This document shows, piece by piece, positions 27,010-27,949 of a DNA stretch of 64,000 bases. The DNA is from Moorena sp. SIOASIH (GTDB lineage Bacteria > Cyanobacteriota > Cyanobacteriia > Cyanobacteriales > Coleofasciculaceae): contig NZ_JAAHIH010000001.1 of the NCBI RefSeq assembly GCF_010671925.1, positions 741,053 to 805,052 of the forward strand, read 5' to 3'. A program made the position numbers and the translations under genes. Within the stretch, counting starts at the first letter, position 1, and every line of letters starts with the position of its first letter. The notes beneath the pieces were generated by a model. It was given only the letters and a program-made list of their open reading frames with translations, did not search any database and was not told where the DNA came from.

Positions 27010-27605
27010 TGCAGCAGTCTGGCAGCAGGGATATTCAAGAACCTGAATTCCCTTTGTGCCACAAACCTGGTCATTATAAACCTGGTCACTATTTATAGTG
27101 GATAAACCTCTCCTCAAAAAATAAGCAGAGAGCCCACTTTTATCTAGCTCGGCATGATGGTCGAGCTAGATTCTCGTTCAATTGCGTTTACTGGTCAGAA
27201 AAGGCTATTAAACTCGCCTGACTTCGCTGGGACTTAAGTTGTTAATCACTCAGTATCCCTTGATCCACGAAAGTGTAAGCACTTATTGACCCAAAGTAGA
27301 CCCAAGAACTGATTGGAGTTGTTTAAACCTAACTGTCTTTGACCTACTTTAGCCCTGATGCCAAAACAAACACATGATATGCTGTGTATATTGTCTTGCC
27401 TCGAACCTACTTCTCAGCCCACAGCACACGCAGCTAATCAGTTGCTGATGAAGCAACTGTCATAACGTCTCTATCGTATATTGTAGAGTATTTTGAATTG
27501 GGTGTCTAGTTAGTTTGAGAATTAGTTTGAGAAAAATTTGCTTGCTGTATGGATTTATGTGAAATCCGGGGATTCGGCTCTCGAAGGATGGGATTCTCGC
27601 GCGTA

Positions 27606-27642
27606 TGCGTTCGCTAGCCAACGCCCTTCGGGCTAATCGCAT
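27606..27642. repeat. 37-bp palindromic element TGCGTTCGCTAGCCAACGCCCTTCGGGCTAATCGCAT (PATE/MITE-like).
   Basis: It is the reverse complement of the 40-bp unit found twice at 37506-37545 and 37603-37642. It contains the internal palindrome TAGCCAACGCCCTTCGGGCTA. Confidence 0.85.
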
Positions 27643-27644
27643 CG

Positions 27645-27949
27645 GATGCTGAAGCGCGAAATATAAGTTAACATCAGCCGTGGTGAGTATGCCGTTAATC
27701 GCGTTATAAAACTTTAGACATTTTCAGGGCTTATAACGGAATACCTTGTCAATAAGCATGTTTTGTCAAGTAACGCCTACAGCTTCCGTTGCCTCAACCC
27801 AACCTACCCCATGTACTCAAGTCAGTCAACCAGGGCTATTTGCCTGTGCCACCTCAGACCTATTACCTATTACCTATTACCTATTACCCATTACCTATTA
27901 CCCATTACCTATTACAAGCGTGTTAAGTAATGTTTCGCGCTTCAGCATC
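27645..27949. repeat. A 17-bp perfect inverted-repeat pair, GATGCTGAAGCGCGAAA at 27645-27661 and TTTCGCGCTTCAGCATC at 27933-27949. The pair brackets 271 bp that include a (CCTATTA/CCCATTA)n array at about 27866-27921.
   Basis: Read directly from the sequence. The geometry is MITE-like terminal inverted repeats or a long-range hairpin. Confidence 0.8.

Follow-up and report, generated by a model that had tools for sequence, protein, structure and literature searches.

The 64,000-nt stretch of the Moorena sp. SIOASIH genome analyzed here (contig NZ_JAAHIH010000001.1, positions 741,053 to 805,052 of the forward strand; hereafter the window) contains three copies of a short intergenic repeat, one standing alone near 27.6 kb and two lying close together near 37.5 kb, downstream of an insertion sequence (IS) that encodes TnpB. 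Our analysis strongly suggests that the repeated unit is an octamer of the HIP1 (highly iterated palindrome 1) type split at one fixed bond by a 26-nt non-coding module, and that its copies constitute a low-copy, Moorena-restricted family which behaves in the manner of SDR5, one of the small dispersed repeats (SDRs), and is unrelated to the neighboring TnpB IS. An initial annotation of the window had taken the solo copy for a palindromic unit that is duplicated in the right end of this IS and had interpreted it as a non-autonomous derivative thereof.

Anatomy of the repeated unit and its insertion site

The repeat was initially delineated as the 40-mer GTAATGCGATTAGCCCGAAGGGCGTTGGCTAGCGAACGCA, which occurs as an exact match at 37506-37545 and 37603-37642. 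On the minus strand, positions 27606-27645 reproduce this 40-mer except for 3 mismatched bases, which are confined to its 5' end, so that 37/40 bases are identical (27606-27642). No match to the 40-mer was recovered in 100 dinucleotide-preserving shuffles, and therefore the repeat itself is real, as the initial annotation had held. Alignment of the regions flanking the copies, which are otherwise unrelated, delimits the true repeated unit as the 34-nt sequence GCGATTAGCCCGAAGGGCGTTGGCTAGCGAACGC, comprising a 26-nt insert and two HIP1 halves. HIP1 is the palindromic octamer GCGATCGC, and each filled site reads GCGAT + TAGCCCGAAGGGCGTTGGCTAGCGAA + CGC, the insertion breaking the octamer and leaving GCGATTAG... 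and GCGAACGC at its borders. The sole placement of the insert compatible with the sequences is the bond GCGAT^CGC, equivalent to GCG^ATCGC on the complementary strand, which, when read on the opposite strand, lies between nucleotides 3 and 4 of HIP1. Within the module a 21-nt core, TAGCCCGAAGGGCGTTGGCTA, is bounded by TAGCC and GGCTA and followed by GCGAA; its ends are distinguished by the 5-bp terminal complementarity TAGCC/GGCTA and by an imperfect 5-nt flank repeat, GCGAT/GCGAA. The three copies in the window are arranged as follows:

27607..27640, minus strand: solo copy; on the plus strand GCG (27607-27609), insert (27610-27635) and ATCGC (27636-27640)
37511..37544, plus strand: copy 1 of the TerB/radical-SAM spacer; GCGAT, insert (37516-37541) and CGC; starts 99 nt past the end of the IS
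37608..37641, plus strand: copy 2 of the TerB/radical-SAM spacer; GCGAT, insert (37613-37638) and CGC; starts 196 nt past the end of the IS

The spacer that harbors the solo copy separates a kefC-like antiporter gene from rplC, and the copy lies 619 nt upstream of the rplC GTG start at 26988. The HIP1 octamer itself abounds in this DNA: the window has 21 HIP1 sites where 0.57 would be expected (~37-fold over-representation), far more than of any other palindromic octamer.

Filled and empty orthologous sites

The window is 93-98% identical to corresponding DNA of M. bouillonii PNG, M. producens JHB and a Moorena-like contig from ENA, which allows each site to be compared with its orthologs. Among the stretches examined, L003 is from M. 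bouillonii, L026 and L027 are from M. producens JHB, and L023 is from another strain. The states of the three sites are:

TerB spacer, site 1: window filled; M. bouillonii empty; JHB empty, GTAATGCGATCGCATCTTG
TerB spacer, site 2: window filled; M. bouillonii filled; JHB empty, GTAATGCGATCGCAACTCAG
kefC/rplC spacer: window filled; L023 filled; JHB empty, CCTGCGATCGCATCC

JHB possesses an intact GCGATCGC at all three positions, and M. bouillonii takes an intermediate position: of the pair of sites near 37.5 kb, only one is filled there and the other is empty. JHB, M. bouillonii and the window thus represent three different states over the three sites, which vary by presence or absence in otherwise homologous DNA, and at each of them the filled and empty versions differ by the same 26 nt inside an otherwise intact HIP1. 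In the two filled sites that the window has in common with L003 and with L023, respectively, the sequence of the unit is the same in both strains, against a divergence of 10-12% in the spacer next to it. These comparisons show that a discrete 26-nt sequence, invariant and in either orientation, has been gained or lost exactly at one HIP1 bond at unrelated loci.

Distribution of copies and their neighborhoods

A scan with an exact 32-mer core against one genome per species (185,579 species) recovered 23 copies distributed over 22 loci, every one of them in a Moorena genome (four species: M. bouillonii, 3 copies; SIO3I8, 4; SS36440bin_2, 7; SIO3H5, 9), and none in any other genus. The unit is thus not confined to the loci of the window, and this half of the refuting condition set by the initial annotation does not hold. 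All 26 of the 26 exact 32-mer copies, including the three in the window, are preceded by GC, and the 34-mer has no counterpart in a collection of plasmids. Across the 256 kb of Moorena DNA examined, the 21-nt core is present in 31 copies with 0 substitutions, and a search allowing up to 3 substitutions found no further, diverged copies in the same DNA. The core is directly preceded by GCGAT in 31/31 cases, and its 3' side is formed by GCGAACGC in 27, by CGC directly in one, and, in two, by GCGAT with another insert (GAAGC...) behind it, placed at the same HIP1 bond. The proposal that the copies might be placed at a target-adjacent motif (TAM) next to an IS end gives way to this pattern, as 31 of 31 core copies lie inside a split, palindromic HIP1.

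All of the full 34-nt copies (27/27) are intergenic, falling outside stop-to-stop frames of at least 120 aa, and they occur in either orientation relative to the neighboring genes. About half of the 26-mer copies adjoin GC-rich mini-repeats of the GCTTCCGCGCTTAT-, GCCGCGCCAAAG- or GGCCAAAGGCC-type, and the kefC/rplC spacer of L023 contains a nested double copy of the unit. When the 33 open reading frames (ORFs) flanking unit loci were compared with Pfam, 56 families were matched; PPK2, GST and Glyco_hydro_68 are the sole recurring ones, with two members each, and two of these three recur in mutually orthologous loci. No transposase family, including Y1, and no RAYT (REP-associated tyrosine transposase) family is present among the 25 of these 56 families that have the most members. 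A TnpB homolog, sought by tblastn with both TnpB proteins of the window in the stretch examined for each locus, was detected in only one of 23 unit loci (L013), 2.6 kb from the unit. In the window, the absence of a transposase ORF around 27.6 kb, remarked upon in the initial annotation, holds, the neighbors of the solo copy being the kefC-like gene and rplC, the latter the first gene of a ribosomal-protein operon. The genes flanking the two spacers are:

27974-30175, minus strand: kefC-like antiporter gene, one flank of the solo-copy spacer (rplC is the other)
34865-35995, minus strand: TerB-family gene, one flank of the two-copy spacer
38222-40972, minus strand: radical-SAM gene, the other flank of the two-copy spacer

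Exact-protein look-ups with the KefC-like, TerB and TnpB proteins of the window, the rplC product taken from ATG, and the proteins P0010 and P0015 returned no record.

Possible mechanisms of spread

The 26-nt module is accompanied in Moorena by unrelated inserts at the same HIP1 bond, likewise of the form GCGAT + insert + CGC. One of these, the 13-nt TGGCCGTAGGCCA, was found in four exact instances (window 7749-7769, L004, L010 and L021), and another, the 8-nt GAAGCGTT, also in four (L010, L017, L020 and L023). Unrelated inserts of 26, 13 and 8 nt at a single phosphodiester of GCGATCGC would imply a cellular activity that opens HIP1 at GCG^ATCGC, and hence we tentatively propose that Moorena, which lies outside Nostocaceae, might harbor an active system of HIP1-targeted mini-elements. 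In the mechanism that we infer for the 26-nt module, HIP1 would be cut or opened at GCG^ATCGC by a host- or element-independent HIP1-directed activity, and a copy of the module would then be templated from another filled site. Because the HIP1 target is a palindrome, the orientation of the insert would be free. Insertion would inactivate the target; only the rare GCGAT-ended variants would regenerate HIP1, and these do bear a second insert at that bond. If Moorena does harbor an active system of this kind, the three filled/empty pairs between near-identical genomes would render both the mobilization of SDRs and the activity on HIP1 experimentally tractable.

Several considerations weigh against a mobile, SDR5-like element. 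The direction of the events, insertion as opposed to precise loss, is not polarized by phylogeny; each genome has no more than a few exact copies (3-9), and no de novo event has been observed. The census is biased in that 23 of the 31 copies were found via the exact 32-mer, on account of which diverged copies would be under-counted, although the search permitting 3 substitutions still returned none in the 256 kb. As no mobilizing protein was identified, the mechanism is one that we infer, and the likeness to SDR5 is one of behavior.

The main rival mechanism dispenses with dedicated machinery: the 26-mer would pass from one HIP1 site to another through template switching mediated by microhomology, or through short-patch conversion. 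Several features are congruent with it: an empty HIP1 and the borders of a filled site have GCGAT and CGC in common, every copy is bordered by HIP1 halves, HIP1 is ~37-fold over-represented, several unrelated short inserts occupy the same bond, copy number is low, and the units are identical while their flanks diverge, as expected of conversion. However, conversion would have to make do with a very short homology of 5 + 3 nt, the position of the insert does not vary but is always the same asymmetric bond, and one 26-mer dominates, accounting for 27 of the recurrent inserts. Overall, we regard a spread of this kind as unlikely; the available data are compatible with both mechanisms.

Further removed from the evidence is the alternative that the unit is a palindrome of the repetitive extragenic palindrome (REP) or REPIN (REP doublet) type, moved by a RAYT, i.e. 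an IS200-like tyrosine transposase, or else a cis-element under selection (a terminator or a protein-binding site, for instance) whose mobility is only apparent. The unit is indeed short, GC-rich, strictly intergenic and more conserved than its flanks, and it forms tandem pairs in L011, L023 and the window. Yet these pairs are direct and not inverted, neither a GTAG nor a CGTC tag is present, and the unit occurs in either orientation relative to the neighboring genes and differs in its presence among close relatives at three loci, one of them upstream of rplC. The description of the unit as palindromic in the initial annotation was also not confirmed, as it contains short internal stems only (GCCC/GGGC and TAGCC/GGCTA). 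Neither the RNA folds of the three copies with their context nor the DNA folds of the 34- and 26-nt forms exceed shuffled sequences in stability (z -0.6 to +0.8), and because the folds equal those of shuffles, the palindromic-unit, terminator and small RNA readings were dropped. With gathering thresholds applied, no Rfam family was matched anywhere in the window, and no Y1-transposase family is among the 25 neighbor families considered above. We consider a REP-like or cis-regulatory origin highly improbable.

Relationship to the adjacent TnpB insertion sequence

The element next to the paired copies is a TnpB-only IS of the IS200/IS605 type:

36006..37412, plus strand: TnpB-only IS; tnpB ORF 36121-37389, with the Pfam domains OrfB_IS605, Cas12f1-like_TNB and HTH_OrfB_IS605

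Its TnpB protein matches, at 100% identity, one annotated in Moorena sp. SIOASIH. The left end of the IS begins with ATCCGACGG at 36006 and its right end finishes with ...GGGAGGATGTCAC at 37412. These boundaries are established by two kinds of comparison. Firstly, M. bouillonii (L003, 6525-6546) and JHB (L026/L027) lack the IS and have 22 nt of heptamer repeats in place of 36006-37412, while retaining 37413-37690, the segment that the initial annotation had regarded as the right end of the IS, at 90-94% identity. Secondly, a TnpB copy that is 89% identical (L024, at a rubredoxin/pdxJ locus) aligns up to ...GGGAGGATGTCAC (37412) and no further, and L013, encoding a TnpB protein that is only 30% identical, shares the same terminal ~50 nt of the right end (...CGGGAGGATGTCA) and stops there; no unit lies downstream of either. 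Since the IS ends at 37412 and the spacer exists without it, both copies of the unit are in host DNA, 99 and 196 nt outside the IS, and do not belong to its right end.

The flanks of the unit are equally devoid of a relationship to this IS. Comparison by blastn of 27118-27973 with both TnpB elements of the window detected no left-end or right-end IS sequence in the solo-copy region, the similarity being confined to the 37-38-nt unit; the failure of the flanks to align, the other half of the refuting condition set by the initial annotation, is thus what was found. The GGGATTC-type motifs, which had been offered as a common flank, lie on opposite sides of the unit when taken in the unit's own orientation, and GGGATTC and GGGATC are ordinary host sequence that is present also at the JHB empty sites lacking IS and unit alike. 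The second TnpB gene of the window is also without a 34-nt unit in its flanks:

61733-63088, minus strand: the second of the two TnpB genes, encoding 451 aa; its DNA is not significantly similar to that of the first IS

The reading of the unit as a non-autonomous derivative of the first IS, resembling a palindrome-associated transposable element (PATE) or a MITE (miniature inverted-repeat transposable element) and moved in trans by a transposase of that family, has in its favor two units within 260 nt downstream of tnpB, a third 10 kb away and the dispersal of the unit across the genus. It is rejected by the flank comparison, the empty-site alignments, the position of the unit outside an IS whose relatives stop at the same base, the rarity of TnpB at the unit loci (1/23) and a target that is the interior of a palindromic octamer and not the 3' side of an asymmetric site, and in its specific form it is refuted, retaining next to no credibility. 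The part of that reading which endures is that the unit is dispersed and non-coding and behaves as a non-autonomous mobile module, given its many unrelated loci and filled/empty orthologous sites; descent from an IS200/IS605-type element and mobilization by that family do not. The present results therefore correct a tempting but wrong link between the repeat and TnpB, the repeat residing in host DNA beside the IS.

As regards the TnpB elements themselves, the TnpB-only IS is an insertion polymorphism among Moorena, and the window IS and the L024 copy are both preceded by TTTTTAG(T/C)TA, a possible target or TAM. A 3-mismatch variant of the TGGCCGTAGGCCA site is located at 63047-63067 on the minus strand, within the 5' end of the second tnpB ORF.

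The adjacent 305-bp element and other differences between strains

The solo copy has a further mobile-looking neighbor:

27645..27949, no strand assigned: 305-bp element with terminal inverted repeats (TIRs) and direct repeats, 4 nt from the solo copy; empty in relatives

Its TIRs are perfect over 17 bp, GATGCTGAAGCGCGAAA (27645-27661, plus strand; 27933-27949, minus strand), extend to 26/29 bases, and have on their outer sides a direct repeat of 6 bp, CGATGC (27639-27644 and 27950-27955), with heptamer repeats of TAATAGG/TAATGGG in the interior. The GC with which the 34-nt unit starts also forms part of the duplicated target. The element is missing from the orthologous kefC/rplC spacers of L023 and JHB; its removal along with one direct repeat yields GACGATGCGATTAGCCC, where L023 has GACTATGCGATTAGCCC. 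It looks like a MITE that inserted at the edge of an already filled HIP1. No second copy or parent IS was found in the sequences examined, and a metagenome scan with the 17-nt TIR gave, among the matches listed, single hits in contigs whose names have no connection with Moorena and no paired TIRs. The 26-nt inserts and this element alter the region upstream of the rplC operon between strains and provide useful strain markers.

A number of other differences between the window and JHB were noticed. The minus-strand gene at 30681-33320 codes for an 879-aa protein with Major Vault Protein (MVP) repeats and an MVP shoulder domain, for which the Pfam E-values reach as low as 1e-68; the host of this gene is a cyanobacterium. 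At the corresponding position of JHB (L027, 14668-16720) there is only a 157-aa Vault_2 ORF, beside a 485-aa ORF with a weak Cas12f1-like_TNB (TnpB-type) match. Because the short ORF alone remains beside the TnpB-type one, the vault gene may be disrupted in JHB. JHB also has a 426-aa RRXRR/HNH endonuclease gene (L027, 11354-12634) between the TerB and pentapeptide-repeat genes, which is absent from the window (between 34700 and 34865). Additional JHB inserts include a composite, GC-rich one of ~70 nt relative to window position ~42014 (L027 reverse-complemented, 15840-15910; ...GCGCGCCAAGGGCGAATAAATCGCCGG...CCAACGCTACGCGAAC) and an AT-rich one of ~260 nt relative to position 33390 (JHB 6534-6793).

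A second family of mini-repeats, TTGGCCAAAAGGCCACGCTACGCGAACA and its variants, occupies seven places in the window (454-478, 3774-3812, 9577-9602, 10809-10833, 39155-39182, 50687-50711 and 60052-60083). Its copies are often beside or inside tandem 7- or 15-nt repeats, in an SDR-like manner, and one interrupts an array of AACCAGCTAACCTTC at 60054-60083. Intergenic tandem arrays with periods of 7, 14 or 15 nt are found at 358-564, 3361-3792, 19356-19419, 27851-27906, 39183-39247, 43357-43449 and 59969-60157, and their lengths differ between strains (e.g. 39183-39247 versus JHB).

Comparison with known small mobile elements and repeats

PATEs are palindrome-associated transposable elements derived from IS200/IS605, with subterminal hairpins at their left and right ends, insertion 3' of a short, asymmetric tetra- or pentanucleotide that is not duplicated, and a cognate TnpA (Y1 transposase) in the genome. 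The 26-nt module resembles them in being small and non-autonomous and in lying, in the window, near a TnpB element. It differs in lacking the left- and right-end hairpins, in its position outside the IS, in having the interior of a palindrome as its target, and in being ~10 times smaller than typical PATEs.

With REP and REPIN sequences (PMC3116915, PMC2817692, PMC3733652) the module shares its short length, GC-richness and extragenic location, as well as the clustering of some copies with other repeats. In contrast to them, it has no stable palindrome, no GTAG/CGTC tag, no inverted doublets and a low copy number, and no RAYT was seen among the neighbor families listed. For MITEs of cyanobacteria, of which Nezha (Zhou et al. 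2008, summarized in PMC3184786) is an example, the evidence for mobility consists in filled versus empty orthologous sites. Such sites are shared by the module, and the adjacent 305-bp element has in addition the TIRs and direct repeat of classical MITE anatomy; the module itself, however, is far below MITE size, has only 5 bp of terminal complementarity and matches no IS ends.

The closest parallel is with the SDRs, which are reportedly ~21-27 nt long, non-coding and dispersed, and are said to aggregate with other small repeats or tandem heptamers. Like them, the Moorena module is tiny (21-nt core, 26-nt insert), non-coding, dispersed, intergenic and without an associated gene, is present or absent at orthologous sites, and adjoins other mini-repeats and tandem heptamer repeats. 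According to PMC4390886, SDR5 in particular goes into HIP1 precisely at the junction of its 3rd and 4th nucleotides, which is the exact bond used by the module. A 2026 preprint (bioRxiv 10.64898/2026.06.24.733823) characterizes SDR5 as a 21-nt sequence of a few heterocystous cyanobacteria with no known function, and according to Xu et al. (PMC5861425) no SDR had been reported outside Nostocaceae. The module departs from SDR5 in the length of its insert (26 versus 21 nt) and in its low copy number in Moorena (3-9 exact copies per genome), and from the SDRs as reported in these texts, from Nostocaceae only, in its host, as Moorena belongs to the non-heterocystous Coleofasciculaceae. A search for literature linking Moorena or Moorea with SDR, MITE, REP or HIP returned nothing relevant.

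Based on its size, dispersal, polymorphism, insertion bond and aggregation with other repeats, we classify the Moorena module among mini-elements that target HIP1 in the manner of SDR5. Being invariant, present in few copies and provided with defined empty sites, it offers a good substrate for finding the activity that moves elements of 20-30 nt or acts on HIP1. The module also adds a well-documented SDR5-like case of HIP1 splitting, with three loci, three allelic states and exact junctions, in a non-heterocystous genus that is rich in natural products.

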